Positions 1 through 14,224 of a stretch of DNA of 14,224 nucleotides are shown one piece after another (the first letter of the stretch is position 1; each line of letters begins with the position of its first letter). The notes beneath the pieces are model-generated. The model saw nothing but the letters and a program-made list of their open reading frames with translations. It was not told where the DNA came from and made no database searches. The translations under genes were made by a program, and so were the position numbers. Source of the stretch: a virus (Duplodnaviria > Heunggongvirae > Uroviricota > Caudoviricetes); IMG/VR virus record IMGVR_UViG_2565956613_000004, positions 1-14,224 of that record, one strand, 5' to 3'.

Positions 1-63
1 CACGGTAGGAATTGTGATGGCGGCAGCACTGGGTTTGTATTCAATTTGTCGCTGGTGGTAACG

Positions 64-297
64 ATGGGAAAAATAACTTTTGTAGTCGAATTTGAGGATG
101 GCAAAGAGCCACCTGTTAGCGCCAATCTTGATGTTGCTGGTGGCAGGCTTGTTTCGGTTCTATTTGGTGACTACCGAGATGACTTCTTCCAACCAGAAGA
201 AGTTGATGTAGTGCGAGAGGCATTAAACGAGTTAAGTGTTGATAACGATGATGCTCATGCGGAAATCATCCAAAAAATGGAACTGCTAACTCACTAA
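64..297 (+). CDS. hypothetical small strongly acidic protein (77 aa from ATG 64; frame open from 46)
   Basis: ORF track 46..297; first ATG at 64 preceded by GGTGG Shine-Dalgarno-like motif; about 18 Asp/Glu versus 6 Lys/Arg; no recognisable family. Confidence 0.4.
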   Translation: MGKITFVVEFEDGKEPPVSANLDVAGGRLVSVLFGDYRDDFFQPEEVDVVREALNELSVDNDDAHAEIIQKMELLTH

Positions 298-475
298 ATT
301 ATCAATTATGGTGCTATCACCTACGACACCGAGAGAAAATTTATAATGTCAAAAGTAAATGTTTTGATTTTTTCAGCAATTGTTGGCTTTGGTTTTACTG
401 CCGGAGTGCAGATTTATATTACGTGGGAAAAAATCATCAACTACGCATGGAGTTGTTTTATTAAGTGAGGTAAGT

Positions 476-769
476 ATGTGGAGAGGTAATAGTCATGGCA
501 AAAGCCAGATGATACTTACCGAATATCAGTTTGACCATAAAACCAATAAATCACGTTCAGTATATTTGCTTCGGCACAATAGCCGCGTAAGGAATACCGT
601 GCTGGAGCAAAATCTGACTGTTGAAATAGATAATTACGGGGGCTTCAAGCCAACAATTTCGCTTGATGATTTTCCTCGTGGTTTAAGCGAAAGAGAAGCA
701 ATGCTGAAATTAGCAGAATGGCTACAAAGATTAAGCATTGCTATTGAAGATAACTGGTCTGAACCTTAA
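476..769 (+). CDS. hypothetical protein (97 aa from ATG 476)
   Basis: ORF track 380..769; in-frame ATG at 476 preceded by GAGGT 5 nt upstream; same strand and tight spacing with the following ORFs. Confidence 0.45.
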   Translation: MWRGNSHGKSQMILTEYQFDHKTNKSRSVYLLRHNSRVRNTVLEQNLTVEIDNYGGFKPTISLDDFPRGLSEREAMLKLAEWLQRLSIAIEDNWSEP

Positions 770-775
770 ATTTAT

Positions 776-1150
776 ATGATGACACTAAAACATTTTCTTG
801 ACCGCCCATTATGGGCGGCAGCCGCAGGCTATGACTTTAATTATATGGATTGCATGTCTTATACCGCCAATGCATACGACTATTCCTTCAGTCTGCTGCT
901 TAATTCTTTAAGAATATTGCCGCAAACAGAAGTTGGAGAGCTTCATTTATGGCTATTGGGCTTTATCGCGGCTGGAGTTGGTATTGCTGTATGGCCTTTT
1001 ATTTTCTGGCTGGTGGCTGTTGTAGTGTGGTTTAAGTGCAAGACGTACCGGAGAAAGTATTTCTTAGGTGATGGAATGACTGATATTGCCAAAATGAACA
1101 TTGAAAAATGGACTAAGGAATGTGAAAAGAAATGGCGCAAAAAGAAATGA
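776..1150 (+). CDS. hypothetical membrane protein (124 aa), one long hydrophobic helix and a Lys-rich C-terminus
   Basis: ORF track; hydrophobic stretch LWLLGFIAAGVGIAVWPFIFWLVAVVVWF; starts 6 nt after the previous stop and overlaps the next ORF by 19 nt. Confidence 0.5.
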   Translation: MMTLKHFLDRPLWAAAAGYDFNYMDCMSYTANAYDYSFSLLLNSLRILPQTEVGELHLWLLGFIAAGVGIAVWPFIFWLVAVVVWFKCKTYRRKYFLGDGMTDIAKMNIEKWTKECEKKWRKKK

Positions 1151-2064
1151 CCAGAATCACTGAAGAGCGTATATCAGAGATTATTTCCCGTATCGAAATG
1201 TATGGTCACGGTGCTGGATATACGGCAGATGAAGTATTGGCACTTGCCCAAATGGCTTTGGCGGCTTGCAAAGATGATAAAAAAATGAAGTTTATCGACT
1301 TGTTAGTGAAGGAACTGCCTAAGTGCGGCGGGTGGCCTGATGGAATGAGTTATTGTTACCTACCCAGTGTCAATTTAATGGCACCATGCGCGACTTTTGC
1401 TTTTGGCTCAGACCACAAAAAAGACACTTTCTTTGGGCGCAATTTTTGTTGTGAGATTGAGCTTCCAATTGGTGACCTTGATAGCGATGAATACCAGTCA
1501 GTTGTCACTCGCGAACAATACGAATCAGCTCTCATAGCGTCGCAGAAAGTCGAGTTCAATGGTGATGAACTTGAAAGTAAGACTTACAGGTTGGATTTTG
1601 GGCAATGGCTGGAACAGCAACGCGGGAAAATCGATGTGGACTGTGGTTGTGTGTCCACTGAAACATTCATGCACTGGCTGCGGGTAGCTTACGAGGCTGG
1701 CAACTATCCGGATATTCCGGATAGTTCGGTGCCAGCACCAGGAAAGGGCGTCACCGGTGAACGTATCCGAATTAAGCCGCATGTTTATCGCGAACTGGTT
1801 AACCGTCTCCACGATACAGCGATCAAGTGTGCTGGCACCCAGCAATTACGAGAAAGAATTAGCCGTGTTTTGGGCGACGTTATTACACCAGATCATCATA
1901 AACAAGCCGAGAAAAGTGGCCTGGAAAGGTGTCACCTTGAGGCGGCATTAAACATTAAGCCGGGGCATACGCTTGGCATTATTGATGCACTATTGGTTCA
2001 TAAGATGGCCAGGGCTTTATTGCCGCTGGTGGATGCTGGCGATACAAGCGAGGGTGAAGTATGA
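1132..2064 (+). CDS. hypothetical Cys-rich protein (310 aa)
   Basis: Longest ORF in the left block; several Cys pairs (FCCEIELP, DVDCGCVS); stop overlaps the next start (ATGA); no motif I recognise such as Walker A or HNH. Confidence 0.55.
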   Translation: MAQKEMTRITEERISEIISRIEMYGHGAGYTADEVLALAQMALAACKDDKKMKFIDLLVKELPKCGGWPDGMSYCYLPSVNLMAPCATFAFGSDHKKDTFFGRNFCCEIELPIGDLDSDEYQSVVTREQYESALIASQKVEFNGDELESKTYRLDFGQWLEQQRGKIDVDCGCVSTETFMHWLRVAYEAGNYPDIPDSSVPAPGKGVTGERIRIKPHVYRELVNRLHDTAIKCAGTQQLRERISRVLGDVITPDHHKQAEKSGLERCHLEAALNIKPGHTLGIIDALLVHKMARALLPLVDAGDTSEGEV

Positions 2065-2423
2065 GAGTTGCAGATCACATCAAACACCTTGAAAGAATTA
2101 TCGAAAACGGTGAACTCTTAAGAGATCAGATGAGACGCACGGCAGAAGTCAGAGAGGCGATAATCCGCAGTCAGGCTGGTAAATTAAAGCAATTATCAGA
2201 GATTAACGCGCTATACAAGAACAGACGTAACCGGGCGGCGCTGCGGCTTCAGAAAGCACGTAATGAAATTAAATTGGTGGAGGCAAAACTGAAAAAACAG
2301 ATTCAGCGTTACGATCAGCAAGATGCTTTTTATGCCGCCATCAAGGCGGCTGCTAATGAAATAGGCATCTGGAAGTTGCTGGTGGAGAAAGCAAAGACGA
2401 AGTTAAATGCCAACGAAAGCTGA
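2061..2423 (+). CDS. hypothetical charged, probably coiled-coil protein (120 aa)
   Basis: ATG overlaps the stop of the 310-aa ORF; composition rich in K/R/E/Q/A/L typical of coiled coil. Confidence 0.5.
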   Translation: MRVADHIKHLERIIENGELLRDQMRRTAEVREAIIRSQAGKLKQLSEINALYKNRRNRAALRLQKARNEIKLVEAKLKKQIQRYDQQDAFYAAIKAAANEIGIWKLLVEKAKTKLNANES

Positions 2424-2497
2424 ACTACAGGTACCCACCAGCACATACAGAAAATGATTGTTTCCACATCAAGGAGATTTTAATGTTTCACTGAACA

Positions 2498-2635
2498 TTA
2501 AGTAAGCCAGTGCATAATTCCATTTTTTACTGACCTTAAAAGCAAAATCAAAACGATGATGAGGATGATCGCCAGAATCTGGCTAATAACAGGCGCATCT
2601 AAAAATGCACTCAGGAACTGAAAAAAAGCAGTCAT
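2498..2635 (-). CDS. candidate small hydrophobic peptide (45 aa; MTAFFQFLSAFLDAPVISQILAIILIIVLILLLRSVKNGIMHWLT)
   Basis: Translated by hand from the minus strand (below the ORF-track length cutoff); ATG at 2635, TAA at 2498..2500; AGGAA about 10 nt upstream; one predicted transmembrane helix; convergent with the upstream operon. Confidence 0.3.
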   Translation of the reverse strand: MTAFFQFLSAFLDAPVISQILAIILIIVLILLLRSVKNGIMHWLT

Positions 2636-2670
2636 TAAGGTGGTTCCTTGTCAAATGTAAAGGAGCACTT

Positions 2671-2739
2671 GCTCACGTTGACGTAGAAACCCAACCCCTA
2701 TATAGTTGGATTCGGTGAAAGAAAGTCGTTAACGTGAGC
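2671..2739. repeat. nested inverted repeat: 13-bp arms GCTCACGTTGACG / CGTTAACGTGAGC (12 of 13) enclosing an inner CCAAC...GTTGG palindrome
   Basis: Read directly from the sequence; lies in the 660-bp non-coding gap immediately upstream (minus-strand sense) of the 45-aa ORF. Confidence 0.4.
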
Positions 2740-3084
2740 TTACGGCACATGTTTTCGGAACAACATCAGGGAACGGCTAATTCCTTGATGCGGATGGGGT
2801 CTGTAATGCAGACCCTATCTATTAACGTCATGATTGCATCTCAAATTTTCTCCTTATCTTCATTAATCAAAATTCATTTCATTTGTGAAACATCACAATA
2901 TTTAGAAAATGGCCCTCTTGCAAGTGCATAACTTTGTGGATAAATCAGGAAGAAAAAAGTTGATTCTGCGCACGGCAAGGCAGATAAGCTGTGCACAAAA
3001 ATCAATGGGAAAAGAAAAAAAATTAAAAGTTACTTTGCTGGTTAAATAATAGTCGTTACGCAATTGTTCTGGATGGGATTTGAT

Positions 3085-3336
3085 ATGCACGATTGGAATA
3101 TTGCAGCTAAAAGTCAGGAAGAACGGGATAAGGTTAACGTTGATCTGGCTGCCAGCGGTGTGGCGTACAAAGAGCGATTGAACATACCTGTCATAGCTGA
3201 ACAGGTAGCCCGCGAGCAACCAGAGAATCTGCGCACCTATTTCATGGAACGGTTACGGCACTATCGGCAGTTAAGCCTCCAGTTGCCAAAAGGGAGCGAT
3301 CCGGTGTATCAGAACGAGGATGCACCAAAAAAATAA
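3085..3336 (+). CDS. hot: Hot, homolog of DNA polymerase III theta subunit (HolE)
   Basis: Segment [43 protein letters not shown] aligns with E. coli HolE ([43 protein letters not shown]); start placed at the ATG giving MHDWNIAAK (ORF track opens at a TTG at 3064). Confidence 0.8.
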
Positions 3337-3421
3337 CGGCAAGATGGGGGAGAAATGTGATTAGCCCCCAGCGTGGCGCGCCTACAAACCCCGCTTTCAC
3401 AAACTATGCCTTTTCAATGTA

Positions 3422-3441
3422 TACTGTATGAATAAACAGTA
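3422..3441. promoter_or_regulatory. LexA (SOS) box TACTGTATGAATAAACAGTA overlapping a TATACT -10 element
   Basis: CTGT-N8-ACAG with flanking TA, about 17 of 20 matches to the consensus TACTGTATATATATACAGTA; sits 19 bp upstream of the humD start codon. Confidence 0.75.
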
Positions 3442-3459
3442 TCATTGAGGTAAAACGCT

Positions 3460-3849
3460 ATGGGCTTCCCTTCTCCTGCGGCGGATTATGTTGAAAGCCG
3501 AATTTCTCTTGATCAGCAGATAATTAGACATCCTTCAGCGACCTACTTCATGCGGGCAGCTGATAGCCATCACCGTGAGGGAATATTGCAGGGTGCTTTG
3601 CTGGTGGTTGATTCCTCGCTTACTCCGGTTGATGGTTCTCTGCTTGTGTGCGCTATGGAGGGTGAATATCGCATAAAGAGATACAGGAAGTATCCGCGCC
3701 AGCACCTGGAGGATTTAAGCACCGGGAAGAAAGAGGCGTTACCAGTAGATGACGATGGATACACGGGCAGTAATGCTGTTTTTGGTGTGATCACTCATGT
3801 CATCAATGATGCCCGAAGTGGGGAATTTGATGATTGTCCGGTTATTTAA
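3460..3849 (+). CDS. humD: HumD, UmuD'-like translesion-synthesis accessory protein encoded in the already-processed form
   Basis: N-terminus [30 protein letters not shown] matches UmuD' starting at Gly25 ([29 protein letters not shown]); FGVITHV matches UmuD FGVVIHV; GAGG RBS; LexA box upstream. Confidence 0.85.
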   Translation: [129 protein letters not shown]

Positions 3850-3884
3850 GCTGCAAAGTGCTGGTGCTTTATGCCTGTGAAGTT

Positions 3885-3915
3885 TATAATTGTGTACACA
3901 TAACGAGTACACGAG
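3885..3915 (+). promoter_or_regulatory. phd-doc promoter with palindromic autoregulatory operator (TATAAT followed by TGTGTACACA and GAGTACAC)
   Basis: TATAAT at 3885..3890; perfect 10-bp palindrome TGTGTACACA at 3891..3900 and a related GTACAC half-site just before the phd RBS, consistent with known Phd/Doc autorepression. Confidence 0.55.
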
Positions 3916-3921
3916 GTGTTT

Positions 3922-4143
3922 ATGCAATCCATTAACTTCCGTACCGCGCGTGGCAACCTTTCTGAAGTGCTCAACAATGTTGAAGCCGGGGAAGAGGTTG
4001 AAATCACCCGCAGAGGCCGTGAGCCAGCAGTAATTGTCAGCAAGGCTACTTTCGAAGCCTACAAAAAAGCGGCGCTGGATGCTGAATTTGCATCCCTGTT
4101 TGACACCCTGGACTCCACCAACAAGGAACTGGTTAACCGATAA
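3922..4143 (+). CDS. phd: Phd antitoxin (prevent host death), 73 aa
   Basis: [49 protein letters not shown]... recognised as P1 Phd; GAGG RBS before ATG 3922 (ORF track opens at an upstream GTG); stop overlaps the doc start (TAATG). Confidence 0.85.
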
Positions 4144-4523
4144 TGAGGCATATATCACCGGAAGAACTTATTGCGCTTCATGATGCGAATATAAGCCGCT
4201 ACGGCGGCCTGCCGGGAATGTCTGATCCGGGTAGGGCAGAGGCCATTATCGGGAGAGTTCAGGCCAGAGTTGCCTACGAAGAGATCACCGACCTTTTCGA
4301 AGTCTCCGCCACCTACCTGGTGGCTACAGCGAGAGGGCATATATTCAATGATGCCAATAAGCGTACCGCGCTAAACAGTGCGCTGCTATTTCTACGCCGT
4401 AACGGGGTGCAGGTATTTGATTCACCTGAACTGGCAGACCTTACTGTAGGCGCTGCGACTGGCGAGATATCTGTATCTTCTGTCGCCGACACGTTACGTA
4501 GATTGTATGGTTCTGCGGAGTAG
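4143..4523 (+). CDS. doc: Doc toxin (death on curing), Fic-fold kinase, 126 aa
   Basis: Fic-type motif [11 protein letters not shown]; size and position right after phd with a 1-nt overlap; sequence recognised as P1 Doc. Confidence 0.9.
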
Positions 4524-4527
4524 ATTA

Positions 4528-4707
4528 ATGGCACGCAAATACAACAAATTGTCCCGTGAAGCGTTAAAGATGCTTCTTGATGGCGCGAGTCGCCGCAAGG
4601 TAAAGCAATACCTGGTTGGTAAGCAAATTGGAGTCAGGACCGCTATTGCTGTGTTATGCCGTCAGGAAATGGTTGTGCTTAAACAGAGAATGCCGGGCAG
4701 CAGATAA
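4528..4707 (+). CDS. pdcA: small basic protein, PdcA-like (post-doc), 59 aa from ATG 4528
   Basis: ORF track 4507..4707; the ATG at 4528 lies 5 nt after the doc stop with GGAG 8 nt upstream; assignment as pdcA is by position in the P1 gene order as I recall it. Confidence 0.45.
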   Translation: MARKYNKLSREALKMLLDGASRRKVKQYLVGKQIGVRTAIAVLCRQEMVVLKQRMPGSR

Positions 4708-4734
4708 AGCCCAATCAGTGATTAAAGGTGTGAT

Positions 4735-5778
4735 GTGAAAGCCGTAATTACTCCCTTTGTACAGAAAGAGCTTGGCCTCGCCACGTTCAAAGTGGATCAG
4801 GAGGTCAGAAAGCTGGTGGAGGCTGGCCGTAAATTTATTATGGAGCCGGTGCCGCGTGAGTTAATCGAGCACATGGAAGACGGCCTCGTTGTTACCGAGC
4901 AAACCATGGCAACAAATGAGGCGTTGCAGCCGTTTTTTAACAGCGATGAACTGTTTCGCCGTATTGGTGGAATTGACGCGCTGGTGGCGTGGTTGCGTAG
5001 GAAAGAGGGTCAATGCCAGGCCGCAGATCGTAGTTGGTGTGACAACCATATTGTCCACGCTGAACGAGACAATAGCGCGGTGTTGTTGTGCTGGCATCAC
5101 GATAACCATTACCGGATGCGTGGTTTTAATGAGCTGAAAGAAACGCTGCACAATAATCGCGTTAACTGGATACTGGATGTCGCCCGTCAGGAAATGGGCC
5201 TTTCAAATAGCCATGATTTAAGTATTCAGGAGCTGTGCTGGTGGGCTTTCATGCGCAACATGATGCACCTGATGCCGGAAGAAGTCTGCCGCATATCAAT
5301 AAATAAGATGAAGGCTACTCCGCAGGATAGCGGACCTCTGAAAGAGGCGGATATTCGCCCGTATGACGATCGCGCTACAGCATATGTTCAGATGATGGAA
5401 GAACGCGCCGCGCCGATGCGTGCAAAAGTATGCCCTGTGGATGTTGACGCCGACCCTGGCATGGCGCATTTCAAAATACCAAAACTTCAATCGCTAAAAT
5501 TGCCCGAGTACATGGATTTTGTGGCTTCCCGTCCATGCTGTGGCTGTGGAGCTGCGGGAGCTGGCGCTCACATTACGCCTTATATCGTTCGTCATAGTCG
5601 ATTATGCGCGCATGACATTTATGCTGTTCCTCTGTGCCAGTCATGCCAGCGTGATATTGAGCGTGACCGCGATAATTGGGAGAAGACGCACGGTAGGCTG
5701 GCGATGCATCAACGATTGTTCTTTGATTACGCGCTTGGAGTCGGCGCTATCACAAGTCATTCGTCGAGCGTTAGATAA
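4735..5778 (+). CDS. pdcB: PdcB-like protein with two Cys/His-rich putative zinc-binding clusters, 347 aa
   Basis: GTG start with AAGGTG 4 nt upstream; clusters [25 protein letters not shown] and CCGCG...H...C.HD...PLCQSCQ suggest a zinc-finger or HNH-like nucleic-acid-binding fold; name from recalled P1 gene order. Confidence 0.65.
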
Positions 5779-5779
5779 A

Positions 5780-5796
5780 ATTGCTCTAATGTATTG
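5780..5796 (+). promoter_or_regulatory. C1 repressor operator-like site ATTGCTCTAATGTATTG upstream of lpa
   Basis: 13 of 17 match to the P1 C1 operator consensus ATTGCTCTAATAAATTT; lpa is known to be C1-controlled in P1. Confidence 0.6.
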
Positions 5797-5866
5797 CTAT
5801 TTCTTTAATCGAGGGTATTATATTCGACGTTGATTAGTTGACATGGGCTAATCAGTAGGTGACAGG

Positions 5867-6319
5867 ATGTTACTTAACTGGCAGGGACGCCACTTCATGG
5901 AAATAAATCACTCACGAATAACATCGTACGAGATTGCGGATTACATGATCCGCACTAAATCTCTTCTATCAGCGAAAGATCTCGCAGCAATTCTTGAAAA
6001 GGAATACCCGCATCTGGATGTCGATAAGCGCGATGTTTATCTGCGCTTAAAGGCTATCGCTGTGTCTAAGTATTCGTCTGTTTTGATTGATGACAGTACA
6101 CGCCCACGTAGATTTCAGATCCACTCTCTGAATCCTGAATTCTTTCGCCGCAGCCGCGCTCCGCGCCGGTTTGATGAAAAACTCCAGAACGAACTCTATA
6201 TGACGCAGGACGAAAAGGAACGCCGGGAGCACCAGCCTTGGGTGATGGCGCGTCAACTTTTCAATAAGGTGGTCCGTCAGCACCGTCATTACGGTAATGC
6301 CACATCCGCACGTATCTGA
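5867..6319 (+). CDS. lpa: Lpa, late promoter activator (gp10)
   Basis: 150-aa ORF with AGGTGA RBS, located between pdcB and pacA behind a C1 operator as in P1; sequence recalled as P1 Lpa, less certain than cre or c1. Confidence 0.65.
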   Translation: MLLNWQGRHFMEINHSRITSYEIADYMIRTKSLLSAKDLAAILEKEYPHLDVDKRDVYLRLKAIAVSKYSSVLIDDSTRPRRFQIHSLNPEFFRRSRAPRRFDEKLQNELYMTQDEKERREHQPWVMARQLFNKVVRQHRHYGNATSARI

Positions 6320-6405
6320 TTGATTGCTTGCCCGTTCCGGGCCTTTTGACATGTGACTTTCGTTACCCTCGCGTCAAAAAGAGTTTTATACGAAAGGAAG
6401 CATAA

Positions 6406-7599
6406 GTGACCTGGGACGATCACAAGAAGAATTTTGCTCGCCTGGCGCGAGATGGTGGTTACACCATCGCACAATATGCCGCCGAGTTTAATCTCAACCC
6501 AAACACCGCACGTCGTTATCTCCGTGCATTCAAAGAAGACACCGGAACAGCGGACAGCCGTAAGCCAAATAAGCCTGTCAGAAAACCACTAAAAAGCATG
6601 ATCATTGATCACGCTAATGATCAACGTGCAGGTGATCACATTGTGGCTGAAATGGCTGAAAAACAAAGAGTTAATGCTGTTGTCAGTGCCGCAGTCGAGA
6701 ACGCGAAGCGCCAGAATAAGCGCATAAATGATCGTTCTGATGATCATGACGTGATCACCCGCGCCCACCGGACCTTACGTGATCGCCTGGAACGCGACAC
6801 CCTGGATGATGATGGTGAACGCTTTGAATTCGAAGCTGGCGATTACCTGATAGATAACGTTGAAGCGCGGAAGGCCGCGCGCGCTATGTTGCGTCGGTCC
6901 GGGGCCGATGTTCTGGAAACCACTCTTCTGGAAAAGTCTCTTTCTCATCTCCTTATGCTGGAGAACGCCAGGGATACGTGTATTCGCCTGGTGCAGGAAA
7001 TGCGCGATCAGCAAAAAGACGATGATGAAGGTACTCCGCCTGAATACCGTATCGCGAGCATGCTAAACAGCTGTTCCGCGCAGATAAGCAGCCTGATCAA
7101 CACCATTTACAGCATCCGGAATAACTATCGAAAAGAAAGCCGGGAGGCGGAAAAGCACGCTTTGTCTATGGGGCAAGCTGGCATTGTTAAGCTGGCATAC
7201 GAACGAAAGCGTGAAAATAACTGGTCAGTGCTGGAAGCAGCTGAATTCATCGAGGCGCATGGCGGGAAAGTGCCGCCCCTGATGCTGGAGCAAATCAAAG
7301 CCGATCTGCGTGCTCCTAAGACCAATACCGATGATGAGGAAAGGCAAACAGCCGTCGGTGGCCCTTCTCTTGAAGATCTGGACAAAGTTGCGCGAGAACG
7401 GGCCGCCAACCGCCGCGCCGATGCCGCATTGTGGATTGAGCAGCGTAGGGAAGAAATCGCCGATATCGTTGATACAGGCGGTTATGGAGATGTTGATACT
7501 GAAGGTGTATCAAACGACCCATGGCTGGAACAAGACCTGGACGAAGACGAGGAGGAAGACGAAGAAGTTACCCGCAAGCTATACGGGGATGATGATTAA
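6406..7599 (+). CDS. pacA: PacA, terminase small (pac-recognition) subunit, 397 aa
   Basis: GTG start with AAGGAAG RBS; contains the pac hexamer clusters internally; acidic C-terminal tail ([11 protein letters not shown]); stop overlaps the pacB start. Confidence 0.9.
6599..6757. other. pac packaging site: four TGATCA hexamers (6599, 6606, 6618, 6633) and three TGATC(A/G) hexamers (6729, 6741, 6752) flanking the cleavage region
   Basis: Hexamers read directly from the sequence; the 4 + 3 arrangement over about 160 bp inside pacA matches the known Dam-methylation-sensitive P1 pac site. Confidence 0.8.
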
Positions 7600-9083
7600 T
7601 GGCCAGAAGTTGCGTAACGGATCCACGTTGGCGCGAGCTGGTGGCGCTATATCGTTATGACTGGATTGCGGCCGCTGATGTTTTGTTCGGCAAAACACCT
7701 ACCTGGCAGCAGGATCTGATTATTGAGTCTGTGCAGGAACAGGGTAGCAAGACATCTGTTTCGTCTGGTCACGGTACCGGGAAATCAGACATGACTTCTA
7801 TCATGATCATGTTGTTCATAATCATGTATCCAGGTGCCCGTGCCATTATCGTTGCGAACAAAATTCAGCAGGTAATGACCGGTATATTCAAGTACATCAA
7901 GATAAACTGGGCTACTGCCACCAGCCGTTTCCCATGGCTTGCTGATTATTTTGTTCTGACAGAAACCGCTTTCTATGAGATTACTGGTAAAGGTGTATGG
8001 ACTGTAGTACCGAAGGGCTTTCGTCTGGGAAGTGAAGAAGCTCTCGCCGGTGAACACGCAGATCATCTTCTGTATATTATCGATGAAGCCTCCGGTGTCA
8101 GTGATAGAGCTTTCGGTATCATCACCGGTGCTCTTACCGGACAGGATAACCGCATCTTATTGCTGTCACAGCCTACACGCCCAAGCGGCTATTTCTACGA
8201 TACACACCATAAACTGGCCAAGCGTCCTGGTAACCCTGATGGCGTTTATACGGCGATCACGCTTAACAGTGAGGAATCACCGTTGGTAACGCCAGCATTT
8301 ATCAAAATGAAGCTGGCGGAGTACGGCGGGCGTGATAACCCTATGTACATGATTAAGGTACGCGGCCTATTCCCTAAATCACAGGATGGCTTCCTTCTTG
8401 GACGTGATGAGGTTGAACGTGCAACGCGGCGGAAAGTCAAGATTGCAAAAGGATGGGGCTGGCTTGCATGTGTGGACGTTGCTGGTGGTACGGGACGGGA
8501 TAAGTCCGTTATCAATATCATGATGGTGTCCGGCCAGCGAAATAAACGCCGTGTAATCAACTATCGAATGCTGGAATACACAGACGTTACAGAAACGCAG
8601 CTTGCCGCCAAAATTTTCGCAGAATGTAATCCTGAGCGATTCCCAAATATCACCATAGCGATAGACGGCGATGGCCTGGGTAAAGCAACGGCGGATCTGA
8701 TGTACGAGTATTATGGTATTACCGTACAGCGTATACGCTGGGGTAAAAAGATGCATAGCCGTGAAGATAAGAGCCTGTACTTTGATAAACGTGCTTATGC
8801 CAACGTTCAAGCCGCAGAGGCCGTAAAATCTGGTCGTATGAGACTGGATAAGGGTAATGAAACTATTGAGGAAGCGTCGAAAATCCCTGTAGGGATTAAC
8901 TCCGCAGGTCAATGGAAGGTGATGAGTAAGGAGGATATGAAGAAAAAACTCAACCTGCACTCACCAGACCATTGGGATACATATTGTTTCGCTATGCTGG
9001 CTGATTATGTTCCCCAGGATGAAGTGCTTAGCGTCGAAGACGAAGCGCAGGTTGATGAAGCTCTGGCATGGCTTAATGAATAA
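7599..9083 (+). CDS. pacB: PacB, terminase large subunit, 494 aa
   Basis: P-loop-like [10 protein letters not shown] near the N-terminus; ATG overlaps the pacA stop (TAATG); size and position as for P1 PacB. Confidence 0.9.
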
Positions 9084-9107
9084 CTCATTGACCATGCCGG
9101 ATAGAAA

Positions 9108-9959
9108 CTATTGCGCGCTTTCGGGGTTGTCGTTTACTGGCTGCCCCTTCTTAGTTTTACGGCTGCGCGTAACTGATGCGGCTGATTTGACCTTTTTCTC
9201 TTCGCGAGTGATGGCAATTTGTTTTTTTACATTTTCAATATCTGCCAGGCGATATATTTTTGCCTGCGGCCAGCGGTCGCAGATGATCGGTTCTATAGAG
9301 TCATAAAGGCTAAATTTTGCTTTCTCGAATTCACCGTTGATGATGATTCCATCACGGAGAGTTTCATCGCAGATAAACACACCACACAGCGGCACATGGT
9401 AACTAACTGATTTACCATCATTGTAGTTAGGGCTACTGGAAATGTAGTGGACGCGCAGCATTGTTTCGCTAAAGCCGTGTACACGCATACGGAATTTTTC
9501 ATCCTCCGGGTACTGCTTCATTAGCTCTTTTGTTGCTTCCAGGTTCTCTATGTATTTCGCACTGTGCTCATTGATCCCCGCGCTTTTCTGGATGCGAATG
9601 TCCTTATCAATCAGATGAATAATGCGGCCAGCGGTCATGTTGACGCTGTTCACAGCTTCTGTCTGATAAGTCGTAACCTTACGCACACCGCGAAGGATGT
9701 TAGGCACAGGATATAAAATAGTCTTTGGGATATTGAGGTCTGGGTACTGTTCCAGTTCCCGCGCCATTAAAGTCCATTTATCAATTTCAGCCTGAATGCT
9801 GTCCGTTTCTTTGAACGGTAGAACGACAACCGGGCGTACAGGACGACCGTCGCTGGCGGCATCAACGTGTTGGGCGCGTGCAACAGCTTTTTTTAGAAAG
9901 AGATCCCTGAAGCTGACGAACTCCTGGTACAGTTGTTCGCCGTAGACATAATTTATCAT
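9108..9959 (-). CDS. c1: C1 repressor of lysis (primary immunity repressor), 283 aa
   Basis: 283-aa protein beginning MINYVYGEQLYQEFVSFRDLF recognised as P1 C1; GGAGGAGGA RBS; preceded by coi and operator sites; matching operators occur elsewhere in the window. Confidence 0.9.
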   Translation of the reverse strand: MINYVYGEQLYQEFVSFRDLFLKKAVARAQHVDAASDGRPVRPVVVLPFKETDSIQAEIDKWTLMARELEQYPDLNIPKTILYPVPNILRGVRKVTTYQTEAVNSVNMTAGRIIHLIDKDIRIQKSAGINEHSAKYIENLEATKELMKQYPEDEKFRMRVHGFSETMLRVHYISSSPNYNDGKSVSYHVPLCGVFICDETLRDGIIINGEFEKAKFSLYDSIEPIICDRWPQAKIYRLADIENVKKQIAITREEKKVKSAASVTRSRKTKKGQPVNDNPESAQ

Positions 9960-9981
9960 TGATCCTCCTCCAGAATTGACA

Positions 9982-10024
9982 TGGCCAACAACTCACAGCG
10001 GATTACACTGGGAGTTGTTGGCCA
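9982..10024. repeat. perfect 13-bp inverted repeat TGGCCAACAACTC / GAGTTGTTGGCCA with a 17-nt loop, between coi and c1
   Basis: Read directly; lies in the coi-c1 intercistronic region just upstream of the c1 RBS; no T-run follows on either strand. Confidence 0.4.
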
Positions 10025-10069
10025 CCATTATAGAAGGATCCAACGAAAATAATAGATTTATTAGTGCAT

Positions 10070-10279
10070 TTATTGTGAGTCTGGCTGGTTAGTGGCCATG
10101 AGATATTCGATTGTGTCAGTGAGATCATCCAGGTCGTCTTGGGTGATGCGGTACTCCTGATTGGATATCTTTGAGTAGTGTTCAGCAATGGCGCGGGCAG
10201 CGTCGGTTTCGGCAGGGTCTACAGATAAAGCGTTAGAGCAATGTCTAACGTCGTCGATGGTTGGTGGAATGAAAGCCAT
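10070..10279 (-). CDS. coi: Coi, C1 inactivator, 69 aa
   Basis: 69-aa ORF directly upstream of c1 on the same strand, downstream of operator sites; size and sequence recalled as P1 Coi. Confidence 0.8.
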   Translation of the reverse strand: MAFIPPTIDDVRHCSNALSVDPAETDAARAIAEHYSKISNQEYRITQDDLDDLTDTIEYLMATNQPDSQ

Positions 10280-10517
10280 AATTATGCCTCACTGTATTGA
10301 CAACACAGAGCCTGAAGCTCTGACCTACTGTTTCACCCATGATCCATGCTGGGGTAATCTAACAACATTGCGCTGTGTGTAAGATGAGCAATGCATAGCT
10401 GTAATGCCGTTGTATAAGGTTTCCCTGTTTGCTCATTTCCTTCTGAGCCGCTCTACAACGCTGAAGACACATTAAATAGTGAATCCAAAGTCGTATTACG
10501 AAACGGCGGCAAAACTA

Positions 10518-10534
10518 TAATTTATTAGAGCAAT
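10518..10534 (-). promoter_or_regulatory. C1 operator (Op99-type), minus-strand sense ATTGCTCTAATAAATTA
   Basis: 16 of 17 match to the C1 operator consensus; about 240 bp upstream of the coi start. Confidence 0.65.
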
Positions 10535-10600
10535 TGTCAAACAACTATGAAAAACAATCCAGTTTTTGGCTGGTGGAGTGGGATTTTTCTCTCAAAATTT

Positions 10601-10617
10601 ATTGCTCTAATAATTCT
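10601..10617 (+). promoter_or_regulatory. C1 operator (Op99-type) ATTGCTCTAATAATTCT
   Basis: 14 of 17 match to consensus; opposite orientation to the site at 10518, in the coi/c1 control region. Confidence 0.6.
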
Positions 10618-10729
10618 TGATTTTTATGCGCAGCTGGACGTAAACTCCTCTTCGGGCCCTTAAGGGTTATTGAACATGATTAATTTACCTGTAAATCCAT
10701 ACAGTTCAATACCTTATCAGGTCAAATAG

Positions 10730-10751
10730 TGATCACTTGATCATTTGATCA
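10730..10751. promoter_or_regulatory. three TGATCA (Dam GATC) hexamers phased 8 bp apart in the cre upstream region
   Basis: TGATCActTGATCAttTGATCA read directly; a Dam-regulated cre promoter is described for P1 (recalled). Confidence 0.5.
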
Positions 10752-10756
10752 AGGTT

Positions 10757-10815
10757 GCGCTACGTAAAATCTGCGAAATGTTGGCAGTGTTAGTGCTCCA
10801 GATTTCGCGTAGCGC
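10757..10815. repeat. imperfect 17-bp inverted repeat GCGCTACGTAAAATCTG ... CAGATTTCGCGTAGCGC (15 of 17), 25-bp spacer
   Basis: Read directly; ends about 30 bp upstream of the RBS of the 73-aa ORF; no T-run, so more likely a protein-binding site or RNA structure than a terminator. Confidence 0.4.
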
Positions 10816-10847
10816 ACTTAGCACCACCAATCAATCAGAGGTGAAAA

Positions 10848-11069
10848 ATGGGATATTCAGCTGCTAAAGTGTCCACTCATATTGAGCTTGAGAAAAACCG
10901 TGGTTACTGGCGGGCAAAAGGGTTTGATCGTGATAGTTGTCAACTGTCATTATCGCGCGGTGAAGAGAAAATAGAACGCACGCGCGGTCGCTGGCGTTTC
11001 TATGACGAGAACCATAAACAGGTAAAGGCAGAGCCGATCCTGTACACTTTACTTAAAACCATTATCTGA
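10848..11069 (+). CDS. hypothetical 73-aa protein immediately upstream of cre
   Basis: ATG with AGAGGTG RBS at optimal spacing; stop 7 nt before the cre ATG, suggesting co-transcription; no recognisable family. Confidence 0.45.
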   Translation: MGYSAAKVSTHIELEKNRGYWRAKGFDRDSCQLSLSRGEEKIERTRGRWRFYDENHKQVKAEPILYTLLKTII

Positions 11070-11076
11070 GTGTTAA

Positions 11077-12108
11077 ATGTCCAATTTACTGACCGTACAC
11101 CAAAATTTGCCTGCATTACCGGTCGATGCAACGAGTGATGAGGTTCGCAAGAACCTGATGGACATGTTCAGGGATCGCCAGGCGTTTTCTGAGCATACCT
11201 GGAAAATGCTTCTGTCCGTTTGCCGGTCGTGGGCGGCATGGTGCAAGTTGAATAACCGGAAATGGTTTCCCGCAGAACCTGAAGATGTTCGCGATTATCT
11301 TCTATATCTTCAGGCGCGCGGTCTGGCAGTAAAAACTATCCAGCAACATTTGGGCCAGCTAAACATGCTTCATCGTCGGTCCGGGCTGCCACGACCAAGT
11401 GACAGTAATGCTGTTTCACTGGTCATGCGACGGATCCGAAAAGAAAACGTTGATGCCGGTGAACGTGCAAAACAGGCACTGGCGTTCGAACGCACTGATT
11501 TCGACCAGGTTCGTTCACTCATGGAAAATAGCGATCGCTGCCAGGATATACGTAATCTGGCATTTCTGGGGATTGCTTATAACACCCTGTTACGTATAGC
11601 CGAAATTTCCAGGATCAGGGTTAAAGATATCTCACGTACTGACGGTGGGAGAATGTTAATCCATATTGGCAGAACGAAAACGCTGGTTAGCACCGCTGGT
11701 GTAGAGAAGGCACTTAGCCTGGGGGTAACTAAACTGGTTGAGCGATGGATTTCTGTCTCTGGTGTAGCTGATGATCCGAATAACTACCTGTTTTGCCGCG
11801 TCAGAAAAAATGGTGTTGCCGCTCCATCATCCACCAGCCAGCTATCAACTCGCGCCCTGGAAGGGATTTTTGAAGCAACTCACCGATTGATTTACGGGGC
11901 AAAAGATGACTCTGGTCAGCGATACCTGGCCTGGTCTGGACATAGTGCCCGTGTCGGTGCCGCGCGAGATATGGCCCGAGCCGGAGTTTCTATACCGGAG
12001 ATCATGCAAGCTGGTGGCTGGACCAACGTAAATATTGTCATGAACTACATTCGTAACCTGGATAGTGAAACGGGGGCAATGGTGCGCCTGCTGGAAGATG
12101 GCGATTAG
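11077..12108 (+). CDS. cre: Cre tyrosine site-specific recombinase, 343 aa
   Basis: Near-identical to P1 Cre as I recall it (MSNLLTVHQNLPALPVDATSDEVRKNLMDMFRDRQAFSEHTWKMLLSVCRSWAAWCK...); C-terminal catalytic region with HSARVGAARDMARAG and GGWTNVNIVMNYIRNLDSE; differs from my recalled P1 sequence at two positions (IAEISRIRV, APSSTSQ). Confidence 0.97.
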   Translation: MSNLLTVHQNLPALPVDATSDEVRKNLMDMFRDRQAFSEHTWKMLLSVCRSWAAWCKLNNRKWFPAEPEDVRDYLLYLQARGLAVKTIQQHLGQLNMLHRRSGLPRPSDSNAVSLVMRRIRKENVDAGERAKQALAFERTDFDQVRSLMENSDRCQDIRNLAFLGIAYNTLLRIAEISRIRVKDISRTDGGRMLIHIGRTKTLVSTAGVEKALSLGVTKLVERWISVSGVADDPNNYLFCRVRKNGVAAPSSTSQLSTRALEGIFEATHRLIYGAKDDSGQRYLAWSGHSARVGAARDMARAGVSIPEIMQAGGWTNVNIVMNYIRNLDSETGAMVRLLEDGD

Positions 12109-12125
12109 CCGTTCATTTGCTCTTT

Positions 12126-12142
12126 ATTGCTCTAATTATTTG
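12126..12142 (+). promoter_or_regulatory. C1 operator-like site ATTGCTCTAATTATTTG with a partial copy (ATTTGCTCT) just upstream
   Basis: 14 of 17 match to consensus; 18 bp after the cre stop and 17 bp before the 103-aa ORF; resembles the Op2 arrangement that controls ref in P1. Confidence 0.55.
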
Positions 12143-12158
12143 ATATTTATGGTTACAC

Positions 12159-12470
12159 ATGCGGAAGGATTTCAAAATAGACGGAAAATATGTGGTGCTG
12201 TCTGTAAGCTCTCAAATTCAGTCACCATCTGTCATTGTCACCGTAAAGTTGAGCGATAGGATGCCTGATATCGACTCGATATCTGTTGCGTTCCCCGTTA
12301 AAAGCATGCGGAGTGCTGAACATTTTGTGATGAATGCAACGGAGGAGGAAGCACGGCGCGGGCTTACTAGAGTGATGGCGGAATTTGGCGAACTCCTGGG
12401 TAAGGTAAACAATGCCCTTTCAATCAGTTCAGCAAGATCCAAAGCGTTAACAGCTTCCATGATGAAATAA
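12159..12470 (+). CDS. hypothetical 103-aa protein behind a C1 operator (no Cys, one His)
   Basis: ORF track; ends immediately before the hairpin at 12476..12496; weak RBS; preferred over the overlapping minus-strand ORF, which needs a TTG start and spans the hairpin. Confidence 0.4.
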   Translation: MRKDFKIDGKYVVLSVSSQIQSPSVIVTVKLSDRMPDIDSISVAFPVKSMRSAEHFVMNATEEEARRGLTRVMAEFGELLGKVNNALSISSARSKALTASMMK

Positions 12471-12475
12471 AAAAA

Positions 12476-12496
12476 AGCCTGGCAAGGAGCCAGGCT
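12476..12496 (-). terminator. rho-independent terminator for the minus-strand antirepressor-like transcript (stem AGCCTGGC / GCCAGGCT, loop AAGGA, U-run on the minus strand)
   Basis: Plus strand reads A8-GCCTGGC-AAGGA-GCCAGGC; on the minus strand the hairpin is followed by a T8 run; on the plus strand no T-run follows. Confidence 0.5.
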
Positions 12497-12618
12497 GCAC
12501 AAAAGAGCGGGGTTGTATTCCGCATCCAATCAATCAAGAAGGAGTATAGCACACAGGTACTGAAGAGAAAAAATGTGATTCGCGATAGATAAAATAGCCA
12601 CTATTGTTATAATTAATT

Positions 12619-12699
12619 GCCATAATTGAGTTATGGCTTTAGTCAACTACGAAGACATTGCCATTATAGACTCCGTGACATCATTGGCGGCCGAAAGGC
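12619..12699 (+). ncRNA. candidate ~80-nt small RNA: extended -10 promoter (TGTTATAAT at 12605..12613), 5' hairpin GCCATAA-TTGAG-TTATGGC, 3' intrinsic terminator
   Basis: All elements read directly; no convincing ORF (the 72-aa ORF 12633..12851 runs through the terminator); complementary to the 3' UTR of the convergent minus-strand mRNA. Not tested. Confidence 0.2.
12676..12699 (+). terminator. strong rho-independent terminator on the plus strand (GGCGGCC-GAAA-GGCCGCC followed by TTTTTT)
   Basis: Perfect 7-bp GC stem with GAAA tetraloop and a T6 run, read directly; ends the cre-side transcription unit and/or a short transcript from the promoter at 12605..12613. Confidence 0.7.
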
Positions 12700-12711
12700 C
12701 GCCTTTTTTAA

Positions 12712-13770
12712 TCATTCAGCCGCCACCGGTTTTAACAAGCCAGCATCGAGCAGTTTACGCGTCAACCACTGTTGGCCTTTCCCCGTTAATTGAGGCGTCA
12801 GCCGTATCTGATAGCCATCTTCATCATCCAGCACCACTTCTTTCACTGTGAAATATCCGGCGTTTATGTACTGCTGAAACGGTACATTTTTACGTCCGCC
12901 GGACGCAATCAGGATGCCGTTCTCCCGTAACCAGGTAAACAACGCGTTTTGCTTAAGCCCAACAACCTTTGCAAAATTTCCAATCAGGATCCCCTTGGCC
13001 CCTGATACCCGGTCGGCAAAATCGACTTTAGGGGCGGCGGCCACCAGCTGCTGATTTAGCTGGTGGGCTTTCTGTTCCAGAAGTTGCTTTTGTTCAGCCA
13101 GCTCGGCAGCCAGGCGCAGAGCTTCGGGGAGTGTTTGGGGAATCACTGGAGAAGCAGTGCTAGCCTGCTGCAATTCCTCCAGTTTGTCGATCAGCGAACG
13201 GCGGACCGCTTTTGACTCGCGCGCGGCAACTCTCAGGGCTTGTTTGTAGGTCATGGAGATAGTTTCAGATGTTGTGTTGTTTAATTTTTGCACTACGAAA
13301 ATTTCGTAGTACTCACCATCCAGTTCATCCTTAACTCTGGCAATAAAATCATTATTGCGAACTGGTTTTTCGCTACATAATTTCCGCGCTTCATTGACCA
13401 TCTTTAACAGCGTCTGGCTGTCGATTGTGTCTCCGGTGTTGGGGATAGCATCCATGGCCGTTGCTGGTGTGGTTGCTGTCAAAGGCTTTGTAACGACAAC
13501 ATCTGGTTTGCTTGCTTTCATTCTGTGTGCCTCCTTGCGTGTTTCGGCTGCGACGGTTGCGTAATTCAGATGCCCCTGTTCGAGCAGGTATTCGCGAATA
13601 TCAGACAGCAGGATACGGTGAACCGCGTTCTTGTCCTTTCTCCGGTAAAGTTGTTTGGTGATCATGAAGTAGTTGGCAATAACACCCGGTATATCCCTGG
13701 TACTGATACAGGCAGTGTGCTGTTCAATTGCCTCAATCATCTCTTCACGGGTGACTAATGACGTTCTCAT
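12712..13770 (-). CDS. antirepressor-like protein with a C-terminal KilA-C/ANT-type domain, 352 aa
   Basis: Strong GGAGGG RBS 4 nt before the ATG; C-terminal segment FADRVSGAKGILIGNFAKVVGLKQNALFTWLRENGIL...NVPFQQYINAGYFTVKEV...TPQLTGKGQQWL resembles phage antirepressor C-terminal (KilA-C/ANT) domains; the N-terminal ~80 aa may be Rha-like, which is uncertain. Confidence 0.75.
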   Translation of the reverse strand: MRTSLVTREEMIEAIEQHTACISTRDIPGVIANYFMITKQLYRRKDKNAVHRILLSDIREYLLEQGHLNYATVAAETRKEAHRMKASKPDVVVTKPLTATTPATAMDAIPNTGDTIDSQTLLKMVNEARKLCSEKPVRNNDFIARVKDELDGEYYEIFVVQKLNNTTSETISMTYKQALRVAARESKAVRRSLIDKLEELQQASTASPVIPQTLPEALRLAAELAEQKQLLEQKAHQLNQQLVAAAPKVDFADRVSGAKGILIGNFAKVVGLKQNALFTWLRENGILIASGGRKNVPFQQYINAGYFTVKEVVLDDEDGYQIRLTPQLTGKGQQWLTRKLLDAGLLKPVAAE

Positions 13771-13988
13771 AGTCCCTCCTGAGCAGAAGCGTTAACAGGG
13801 AGGCACCAGTAACTGAGAGAATTGCGCGAATCGGTAGAAAAACGGGCGGAGAAAATGCAGGGAGCATCCGGAAGCTGAGAACGTGCCTCATCTTCTGTTG
13901 GTGCGATAACGAAGTGATAGTGACGTTTTTGACAAGAATAGAAGCGCCAGATGAATTCAGGGCGTGCGCAAGGATTGGCATTAACCAT
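13767..13988 (-). CDS. possible 73-aa ORF upstream of and overlapping (ATGA) the antirepressor-like gene
   Basis: ORF track; GAGG 9 nt upstream of the ATG; the stop overlapping the downstream ATG is forced by the frame, so support is weak. Confidence 0.25.
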   Translation of the reverse strand: MVNANPCARPEFIWRFYSCQKRHYHFVIAPTEDEARSQLPDAPCIFSARFSTDSRNSLSYWCLPVNASAQEGL

Positions 13989-14224
13989 AGTTACGGCCTC
14001 ACTAACAGGTTTAACAACCTGCTACCCGCTGCTAAACAGGTGGCAGGACGTGACGGGGTTAGCAGACTGGCGTTAGTGAAACCAGCAGGCCGAAGCCTCC
14101 CCATCACGCCCCACCATAATTTGGGCGTAACGCGGTTTTACGGACACAAAAATACCGCAATATCGGATATCTGCGGTTGTCCACACTAACATTCAGGCTG
14201 CTAAACCCGGTCGCAGAATTTGCT

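Follow-up and report, generated by a model that had tools for sequence, protein, structure and literature searches.

What do the small genes ahead of upfM/N/O and hot in P1-like phage-plasmids do, and do they help to build the virion, as the 'pmg' names of some of them in P1 suggest? The question is raised by positions 64 to 2423 of a 14,224-nucleotide stretch of DNA from a Caudoviricetes virus (IMG/VR record IMGVR_UViG_2565956613_000004, positions 1 to 14,224; hereafter the window), where an initial annotation left a compact series of open reading frames (ORFs) without a function. The first 3 kb of the window are 99.9% identical to Escherichia phage vB_EcoM-813R1 (813R1) and 97.4% identical to Salmonella phage SJ46, and PLSDB plasmid NZ_CP023381.1 is 100% identical across window 1-2500. 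The genes 3' of pmgV in the window are upfM/N/O, hot, humD, phd/doc, pdcB, lpa, pacA/B, c1 and cre. Thus, on these identities and genes, the window is part of a P1-like (SJ46/813R1-type) phage-plasmid. The answer that we favor, and that we consider reasonably probable, is that the ORFs are dispensable early accessory genes, directed at the host, distal in a C1-controlled operon, and not morphogenetic.

The block contains six ORFs, listed here with their best family matches (E, expectation value; aa, amino acids):

64-297, plus strand: 77-aa acidic ORF; phrog_3876, E 5e-53.
346-468, plus strand: 40-aa small membrane ORF; phrog_5525, E 1e-24, 40/40 positions.
476-769, plus strand: 97-aa soluble-protein ORF; phrog_1258, E 3e-49, full length.
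776-1150, plus strand: 124-aa single-pass membrane ORF; phrog_2638, E 1e-62.
1132-2064, plus strand: 310-aa modular ORF; several PHROGs, including phrog_3126, phrog_3323 and phrog_7798.
2061-2423, plus strand: 120-aa ORF, pmgV; phrog_4403; identical to P1 PmgV.

The initial annotation counted five ORFs between 64 and 2423. All five are found at the coordinates it gave, but the count overlooked the 40-aa ORF at 346-468, which is annotated as a coding sequence (CDS) in both SJ46 and 813R1. The tight packing that it described from 476 to 2423 is confirmed: the 97-aa and 124-aa ORFs lie 6 nt apart, the last 19 nt of the 124-aa ORF are shared with the 310-aa ORF, and the 310-aa and 120-aa ORFs overlap at an ATGA. 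The gap between the 40-aa and 97-aa ORFs is 7 nt, and a Shine-Dalgarno sequence, GTGAGGT, precedes the ATG at 476. This packing is consistent with translational coupling. When compared with SJ46, the 77-aa ORF carries 10 synonymous and 2 non-synonymous differences, giving a ratio of non-synonymous to synonymous rates (dN/dS) of 0.05. The 97-, 124-, 310- and 120-aa ORFs give values of 0.1-0.35, based on few substitutions, and the 40-aa ORF has 1 non-synonymous and 0 synonymous differences, hence its dN/dS is not computable. The ORFs of the block look like genuine genes by these measures.

Scans of all six proteins with Pfam, NCBIfam and PADLOC gave nothing above threshold; the best E across the six against the anti-phage defence models of PADLOC-DB was 0.058. 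Every PHROG matched by the six proteins carries the label 'unknown function', and Pfam PF13935 (Ead_Ea22) has no match at E <= 1 in any of them. The remark that these products carry no recognisable motif therefore holds across Pfam, NCBIfam and PADLOC. The hidden Markov model and structure searches that had been recommended alongside it returned families of unknown function, with no match that gives a function and, for the 77-aa and 310-aa models, no fold match in the PDB.

Comparison with reference P1 is more informative. P1 can be aligned to the first 3 kb of the window solely from position 1689 on. The 120-aa ORF is identical to P1 PmgV (P1_gp097) at 120/120 residues and is followed by upfM/N/O and hot as in P1, and aa 200-310 of the 310-aa ORF match P1 PmgU (P1_gp096, 111 aa) at 105/111 positions (95%). 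Thus, alignment to the P1 region upstream of hot, one of the checks initially suggested, recovers the pmgU part and pmgV, whereas window 1-1688 is absent from P1. The guess that the stretch corresponds either to P1 upf/pmg ORFs or to an accessory module was right on both counts, with PmgV at 100%, PmgU at 95% and an accessory part at 1-1688. The P1 region pmgT-pmgU-pmgV (P1_gp095-097) occupies the same slot, between pap and upfM/N/O-hot. In P1, however, pmgU is an orphan C-terminal fragment, whereas here PmgU forms the end of a 310-aa protein and four genes lie ahead of it.

The origin of this difference was located by three-way DNA alignment of P1, 813R1 and the window. In 813R1 the pmgT orthologue is intact: it encodes 242 aa, lies at 4999-5727 of the 813R1 record (L003), about 3.3 kb upstream of window position 1, and its product is 99% identical to P1 PmgT over aa 1-232, with the C-terminus ...NPWVWVIEFKRIQE. 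P1 fuses pmgT codon 232 to window position 1689, which is codon 186 of the 310-aa gene. The junction, at position 4001 of the P1 record (L001), reads CCCTGGGT followed directly by TACGAGG, with 1-nt microhomology, and P1 is without 4,994 bp found in 813R1 (L003 5694-10687), including window 1-1688. The P1 join is out of frame. PmgT aa 233-309 are a 77-aa frame-shifted reading of the linker YEAGNYPDIPDSS and the start of PmgU, and P1 pmgU itself starts at a GTG inside this linker; a deletion scar therefore seems to account for both PmgT aa 233-309 and the separate pmgU. On the simplest reading, from which we infer the direction of the event, reference P1 arose by deletion at the pmgT/pmgU locus. 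Insertion is much less likely, because two reading frames would have had to be restored exactly. Two other ideas about pmgT were rejected. The 310-aa ORF is not a diverged PmgT (P1_gp095), since the best E is 1.4 and its first 199 residues are unrelated to PmgT. The label '3'-phosphatase, 5'-polynucleotide kinase' in the 813R1 record, a hint of RNA repair, belongs to the pmgT orthologue and appears unfounded, because Pfam and PHROGs give no such signal.

These identities bear directly on whether the genes are morphogenetic. The P1 record annotates pmgT, pmgU and pmgV with a 'putative morphogenetic function', and the block genes could on this account encode assembly chaperones or minor virion components. 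PmgV is basic, helical and free of proline, with 68% hydrophobic residues at the a/d positions of the best heptad register against 42% overall. By this crude check it is coiled-coil-like, as first described, and some scaffolding and assembly proteins are too. It is also essentially restricted to P1-like phages, with distant 34% matches in Klebsiella phages. However, in-frame deletions of pmgT, pmgU and pmgV have been made in P1, where essentiality was confined to pmgA, B, C, G and R and 24 other knockouts left plating and antirestriction unchanged (PMC9024508). CRISPR interference (CRISPRi) likewise found pmgT/U/V to be non-essential (PMC10695390), and deletion of any of the three leaves normal plating (PMC9024508, PMC10695390). 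P1 is moreover viable although the 77-, 40-, 97- and 124-aa genes are absent, and even without window 1-1688 its virions are normal. The promoter ahead of the genes is an early one under C1 control, not a late one, and homologues of the genes occur in early-left, nin and N15-like early operons, never in structural modules. Because pmgT/U/V are dispensable and P1 is viable without the other four genes, a morphogenetic role is largely refuted for pmgU and pmgV. For the block it is very unlikely, and it is the least probable of the explanations considered here.

In the P1 record, the C1 operator OpmgT (formerly Op88) overlaps two predicted sigma-70 promoters (P1pmgT/P2pmgT) just after pap. The corresponding operator in 813R1, ATTGCTCTAATAAATAT, is one mismatch from consensus and lies at L003 4805-4821, outside the window and about 4.2 kb upstream of its position 1. 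The 240 bp around it are 98% identical between 813R1 and the annotated OpmgT/P1pmgT/P2pmgT region of P1. Between pmgT and the window, 813R1 carries small ORFs, two Pfam Ead_Ea22 genes (E 1e-16 and 4e-37), a DUF7739 gene and a 295-aa DUF551 gene (L003 8094-8981) that ends 20 bp short of window position 1, and every annotated gene from the operator to pmgV is on one strand. A C1 operator scan of window 1-5700 found none, and consensus scans found neither a sigma-70-like promoter on the plus strand of the block nor a strong terminator between the operator and the block. An operator or promoter of the block's own was dropped as a candidate, since the scans found neither. The conserved operator, the common strand, and the lack of a strong terminator, internal plus-strand promoter or C1 operator in these scans together suggest that the block lies at the far end of an early, C1-repressed operon of about 6.6 kb, running from PpmgT to pmgV.

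If these genes formed one system, they would be expected to travel together. Instead, plasmid counts differ by segment. Some part of the block is present in 454 PLSDB records, and at least 80% of it in 119. The 77+40-aa segment is found in 225 records, the 97+124-aa segment in 310 (at 80% coverage or more in 254) and pmgV in 200. Homology to plasmids and phages breaks at 52, 470, 1574, 1689/1695, 1727 and 2032/2035, which are gene or module borders. The description of the locus as a compact, coherent five-gene unit does not survive these results: the genes are spread independently across plasmids and occur singly in unrelated phages. For both reasons the block, as judged from its distribution, is a cassette in which genes are exchanged independently, rather than a conserved system. 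The G+C content of window 1-1500 is about 40%, against 47% for the whole window, which is consistent with horizontally acquired accessory DNA. P1-like phage-plasmids have been described as having eight 'highly variable regions', of which this is one (PMC9603915).

The relatives of the individual genes indicate where such exchange reaches. The 97-aa protein has homologues in 42 phage records, among them N15 gp44 (55% identity), phiKO2 gp43 (67%) and proteins of P22-like and lambdoid phages (42%); one of these, mEp235_051 of the nin region (42% identical), sits between ninF and rusA. Searched against the PDB by sequence, the 97-aa protein gave no significant match. In N15-like phage-plasmids, homologues of the 124-aa protein (52-56% identity) are encoded between dam and an RNase_T exonuclease gene; others occur in Yersinia, Klebsiella and Proteus phages. 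The family is small, with only 16 clusters. In Proteus phages the 97-aa and 124-aa homologues are about 6 kb apart. Like the block genes, the N15, phiKO2 and nin genes are all small, closely packed and of unknown function, and their neighbors change from phage to phage.

Two of the products are predicted to reside in the membrane. The 40-aa protein consists of one hydrophobic helix, a predicted transmembrane segment (hydrophobic window aa 3-25). The 124-aa protein, first described as a single-helix membrane protein with a poly-Lys tail, indeed has one hydrophobic stretch (about aa 53-89) and a Lys-rich C-terminus, ...KKWRKKK, which by the positive-inside rule is probably cytoplasmic. Since phage exclusion systems typically have small single-pass membrane proteins, these two, perhaps with their neighbors, could be made in the lysogen and defend the host by superinfection exclusion or abortive infection. 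Like defence islands, the region is hypervariable, and its G+C content is low (about 40%, against 47% in the remaining window). However, no PADLOC model matches, no sigma-70-like promoter was found on the plus strand within or just 5' of the block, and the sole control element mapped, a C1 operator, would silence the genes in a lysogen. The N15-like homologues lie in lytic early operons next to exonuclease and dam genes. An exclusion function is, on balance, decidedly improbable.

Mosaicism extends into single proteins, and most clearly into the 310-aa product. An alignment of its close relatives resolves into five blocks, each present or absent independently:

aa 1-45, window 1132-1266, plus strand: module A, 'TRITxERI...YGxG...LAxxALA'; phrog_3126 and phrog_3323.
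aa 46-147, window 1267-1572, plus strand: module B, a Cys-containing alpha/beta domain with most of the Cys; phrog_7798.
aa 148-200, window 1573-1731, plus strand: module C with linker, 'FxQWLxQQxGxIDVxCGCVxTExFxHWLRVAYEAGN-YPDIPDSS'; the most widespread module.
aa 205-258, window 1744-1905, plus strand: module D, the first half of P1 PmgU (95% identity); several PHROGs match aa 210-260 only.
aa 260-300, window 1909-2031, plus strand: module E, helical, 'LERxxLEAALxIKPGHTLGxIDAxLVHxMAxALLPL'; the C-terminal core of PmgU.

Conserved 'AGNxPxIPD' linkers join the modules. Module A is common to the 310-aa protein, the upstream DUF551 protein and P7 Upf89.5. The N-terminal modules of the DUF551 and 310-aa proteins are 39% identical (E 1e-4), and an AGNxPxxPDS linker is found in both; the operon therefore holds two paralogous mosaic proteins. 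Module B is missing in many close relatives (e.g. P0033, P0051 and P0057) and is a stand-alone gene in the virulent Salmonella/E. coli siphophages seszw, SeSz-2, Akira, BS5 and swi2, at 35-41% identity. The P1 deletion junction falls within module C (window 1688/1689), and module D is deleted in P0012, P0024, P0027 and other relatives. All 27 invariant columns of the alignment lie within aa 261-299, in module E, close to whose end plasmid homology often stops (2032/2035).

The protein contains 10 Cys, including CC at 107-108 and CGC at 171-173, which fits its first description as Cys-rich with several Cys pairs. It is nevertheless a chain of portable modules and not a single Cys-pair protein, and only the CxC..H of module C is widely conserved. 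C171, C173 and H181 (window 1642-1674) are retained in about 48/56 distant representatives, and this CxC...H may bind a metal or lie in a dimer interface. Among close relatives the other Cys mostly vary. Zinc-finger-like Cys pairs were rejected as a candidate, because most Cys are unconserved and only these three residues are kept.

A search of 1.84 billion representatives returned 558 relatives of the 310-aa protein, mostly via module C, none of them named or functionally assigned. Among 60 module C relatives, the partner domains were DUF551 (17), Ead_Ea22 (2), Lar (2) and DUF3850/ASCH; with the exception of Lar, these are uncharacterised. Module C is found in Shiga toxin (Stx)-phage genes annotated EaA, Ea22 or DUF551, and P0130 joins a true Pfam Ead_Ea22 N-domain to a PmgU-like C-terminus. 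The DUF551 model (Pfam PF04448) itself has no match in the 310-aa protein. The AlphaFold model has a predicted local distance difference test (pLDDT) score of 63, with disordered linkers, and is best in module B (pLDDT 70-86). No significant match was found in the PDB by sequence, profile or fold, the model being too weak for the fold negative to mean much. In the 813R1 record, a frameshift near codon 51 divides the 310-aa gene (L003 10132-11063) between two CDSs, and in the window and SJ46 it is a single open frame; the frameshift is either a sequencing error or a recent mutation.

The mosaic nature of the locus raises the question of whether its genes are merely evolutionary debris, that is, transcribed leftovers of recombination with no selected function. 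Extreme presence/absence variation, the out-of-frame scar at the same locus in P1, the frameshift in 813R1 and dispensability in the laboratory would all be expected of debris. The constraint on the genes would not. The five ORFs for which dN/dS is computable give 0.05-0.35, and in different genera and types of phage the families retain length and motifs at identities as low as 44-55%. Module E does not vary, and about 48/56 representatives keep the CxC..H of module C. We consider it quite improbable that the block is debris.

The lowest dN/dS is that of the 77-aa acidic protein, whose composition invited a specific proposal. Its computed net charge of -12 (pI 4.2) agrees with the value of about -12 first estimated. 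The family has 104 homologues of 76-83 aa, retains its length and MGK start down to 44% identity, and has a median net charge of -12 (range -16 to -5, n=40). The range of phrog_3876 is narrow, with only Enterobacteriaceae phage-plasmids and lambdoid prophages. In Citrobacter lambdoid prophages the gene is the last of the early-left operon, just upstream of xis/int, where it follows genes for Gam/RecT/exonuclease, a methylase, DUF1382, TraR-like, DUF4222 and DUF7694 proteins and is unaccompanied by other genes of the block. The first 40 aa of the family are nearly invariant. The charge is concentrated elsewhere: the nearly invariant aa 1-42 carry only -4, and the more acidic C-terminal half varies in sequence and charge. 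In the model (pLDDT 84), aa 18-36 form a beta-hairpin and aa 44-74 two helices. This model found no PDB structure with Foldseek better than E 0.6 (query-normalised TM-scores < 0.4) and no match in BFVD at E <= 0.001, and searches of the PDB by phmmer and by profile gave nothing significant.

Could this protein be a DNA mimic that, in the manner of Ocr, ArdA or Ugi, blocks a host DNA-binding defence enzyme early in infection, making the block an anti-restriction module? Candidate targets would be a type I restriction enzyme or RecBCD. T7 Ocr, ArdA and PBS2 Ugi resemble the 77-aa protein in small size, strong negative charge and early expression. The charge of -12 in 77 aa (pI 4.2), its maintenance across the family, the strong purifying selection on the ORF and its location in an early operon, in lambdoid prophages at the end of the early-left operon near recombination and methylase genes, are all compatible with mimicry. 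The missing fold match is not decisive, because known mimics have no common fold. However, there is no likeness in sequence or fold to these three proteins, nor by sequence, profile or fold to any solved or predicted structure in the PDB or BFVD, and no Pfam or PADLOC signal. The nearly invariant aa 1-42 carry just -4, and the charge sits mainly in the poorly conserved helical half. P1-like phages already have the Dar anti-restriction system, and acidity is common among small phage proteins, which makes composition weak evidence. The initial suggestion of a DNA mimic drew on composition, and neither the structural searches nor the conservation, which is best in the less acidic N-terminal half, bear it out. 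We regard it as rather improbable.

Taken together, the gene identities, the mosaic distribution, the operator conserved upstream, purifying selection and the dispensability of pmgU and pmgV in P1 are observations. Co-transcription from PpmgT, early timing in this element and a host-directed role are what we infer. A close parallel is the exo-xis (ea) region of lambdoid phages, which also consists of early, dispensable, highly mosaic small genes (PMC10834534, PMC7093339). Ea22 proteins are themselves mosaic: the N-terminal part is shared, and the C-terminal domains, DUF551 among them, are portable (PMC10834534). The 310-aa protein resembles Ea22 (PF13935) in its mosaic build, portable C-terminal domain and location in an early, dispensable region. 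The operon of the block also includes two Ead_Ea22 genes and a DUF551 gene, P0130 carries a PmgU-like C-terminus, module C recurs in Stx-phage EaA/Ea22/DUF551 genes, and in Citrobacter prophages the 77-aa gene stands directly 5' of xis/int. The parallel is incomplete, in that the Ead_Ea22 and DUF551 Pfam models match no product of the six ORFs, and this P1-type plasmid prophage is under C1/Op control, in contrast to the CI/pL system with N antitermination.

The early operator, the kinship with exo-xis, nin and N15-like genes, and the rapid shuffling of modules point to an accessory role that acts on the host. The six ORFs would then be a mosaic of small, singly exchangeable, non-structural genes, as in lambdoid exo-xis/nin and N15-like early operons. 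When C1 repression is lifted, their products would be made early and, through protein-protein contacts, two of them at the membrane, would shift the physiology of the host, the balance between lysis and lysogeny, or counter-defence. The same mode of action has been proposed for ea22 and other exo-xis genes. By this analogy the products may tune lysogeny and induction or host physiology, or they may counter host defences.

Several points weigh against this interpretation. The case for co-transcription across about 6.6 kb is made from strand, spacing and missing consensus signals, and a simple consensus scan may overlook promoters and Rho-dependent terminators. The module borders of the 310-aa protein were drawn from alignments and not from structure, the confidence of the model being low. 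Some of the genes may be partners in pairs, as the 97-aa and 124-aa genes occur together in 254/310 plasmids and the 77-aa gene is accompanied by the 40-aa gene. The host-directed role is argued by analogy, since no relative with an established biochemical activity was detected for any product, and the mechanisms of exo-xis and nin genes are themselves poorly known. P1 deletions of pmgU and pmgV show no antirestriction phenotype, although with few restriction systems and in one host (PMC9024508).

A bolder version of the same idea is that the 310-aa/PmgU-type proteins form, with the Ead/Ea22 and DUF551 proteins, a set of combinatorial early effectors, and/or that the 77-aa protein is a new inhibitor of a defence enzyme. 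Module E (aa 260-300) and the CxC..H module would be a constant oligomerisation or effector core, which swapped N-terminal and central modules would retarget to other host defence or cell-cycle proteins. The 77-aa protein would be a new DNA mimic or another kind of inhibitor of a host defence enzyme. This proposal is unlikely. If it were true, 'variable region 8' of P1 would be a counter-defence hotspot of resistance-spreading phage-plasmids.

Other features of the window lie downstream of the block. A tblastn search of the entire window found no match to lxr, the gene located between hot and humD in P1. The hot-humD gap is 123 nt (window 3337-3459), and a LexA-box-like sequence, CTGTATGAATAAACAG, is still present at 3424. 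The sole Rfam match in the window is a C4 antisense RNA at 14036-14121 on the minus strand (70 bits, E 3e-12), the P1 immI regulatory RNA. An RNA gene inside the six-ORF block was dropped as a candidate, since Rfam gives this RNA alone, far downstream. The C1 operator consensus, with up to 3 mismatches, matches 5 sites in the window against 0.1 expected by chance, none of them inside 64-2423:

5780-5796: C1 operator-like site at the position of P1's annotated lpa operator Olpa/Op94.
10054-10070, 10518-10534, 10601-10617 and 12126-12142: C1 operator-like sites between c1 and cre or just past cre.

The region is already catalogued as a hypervariable accessory part of P1-like phage-plasmids. These elements are frequent in clinical E. 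coli and Salmonella and bear resistance genes, and an early accessory operon in them is therefore a reasonable place for determinants of host range or counter-defence, a function that is at present a possibility suggested by analogy. The comparison also yields two useful by-products, in that P1 pmgT/pmgU can be re-read as a deletion scar and PmgU placed among the Ea22-type portable C-terminal domains. Reference P1 is not the fuller arrangement at the pmgT/pmgU locus. The 'putative morphogenetic' labels mislead, and P1 pmgU and pmgV are better read as accessory early genes of exo-xis/Ea22 type, within a recombination-driven variable region that trades genes and protein modules with lambdoid and N15-like phages.

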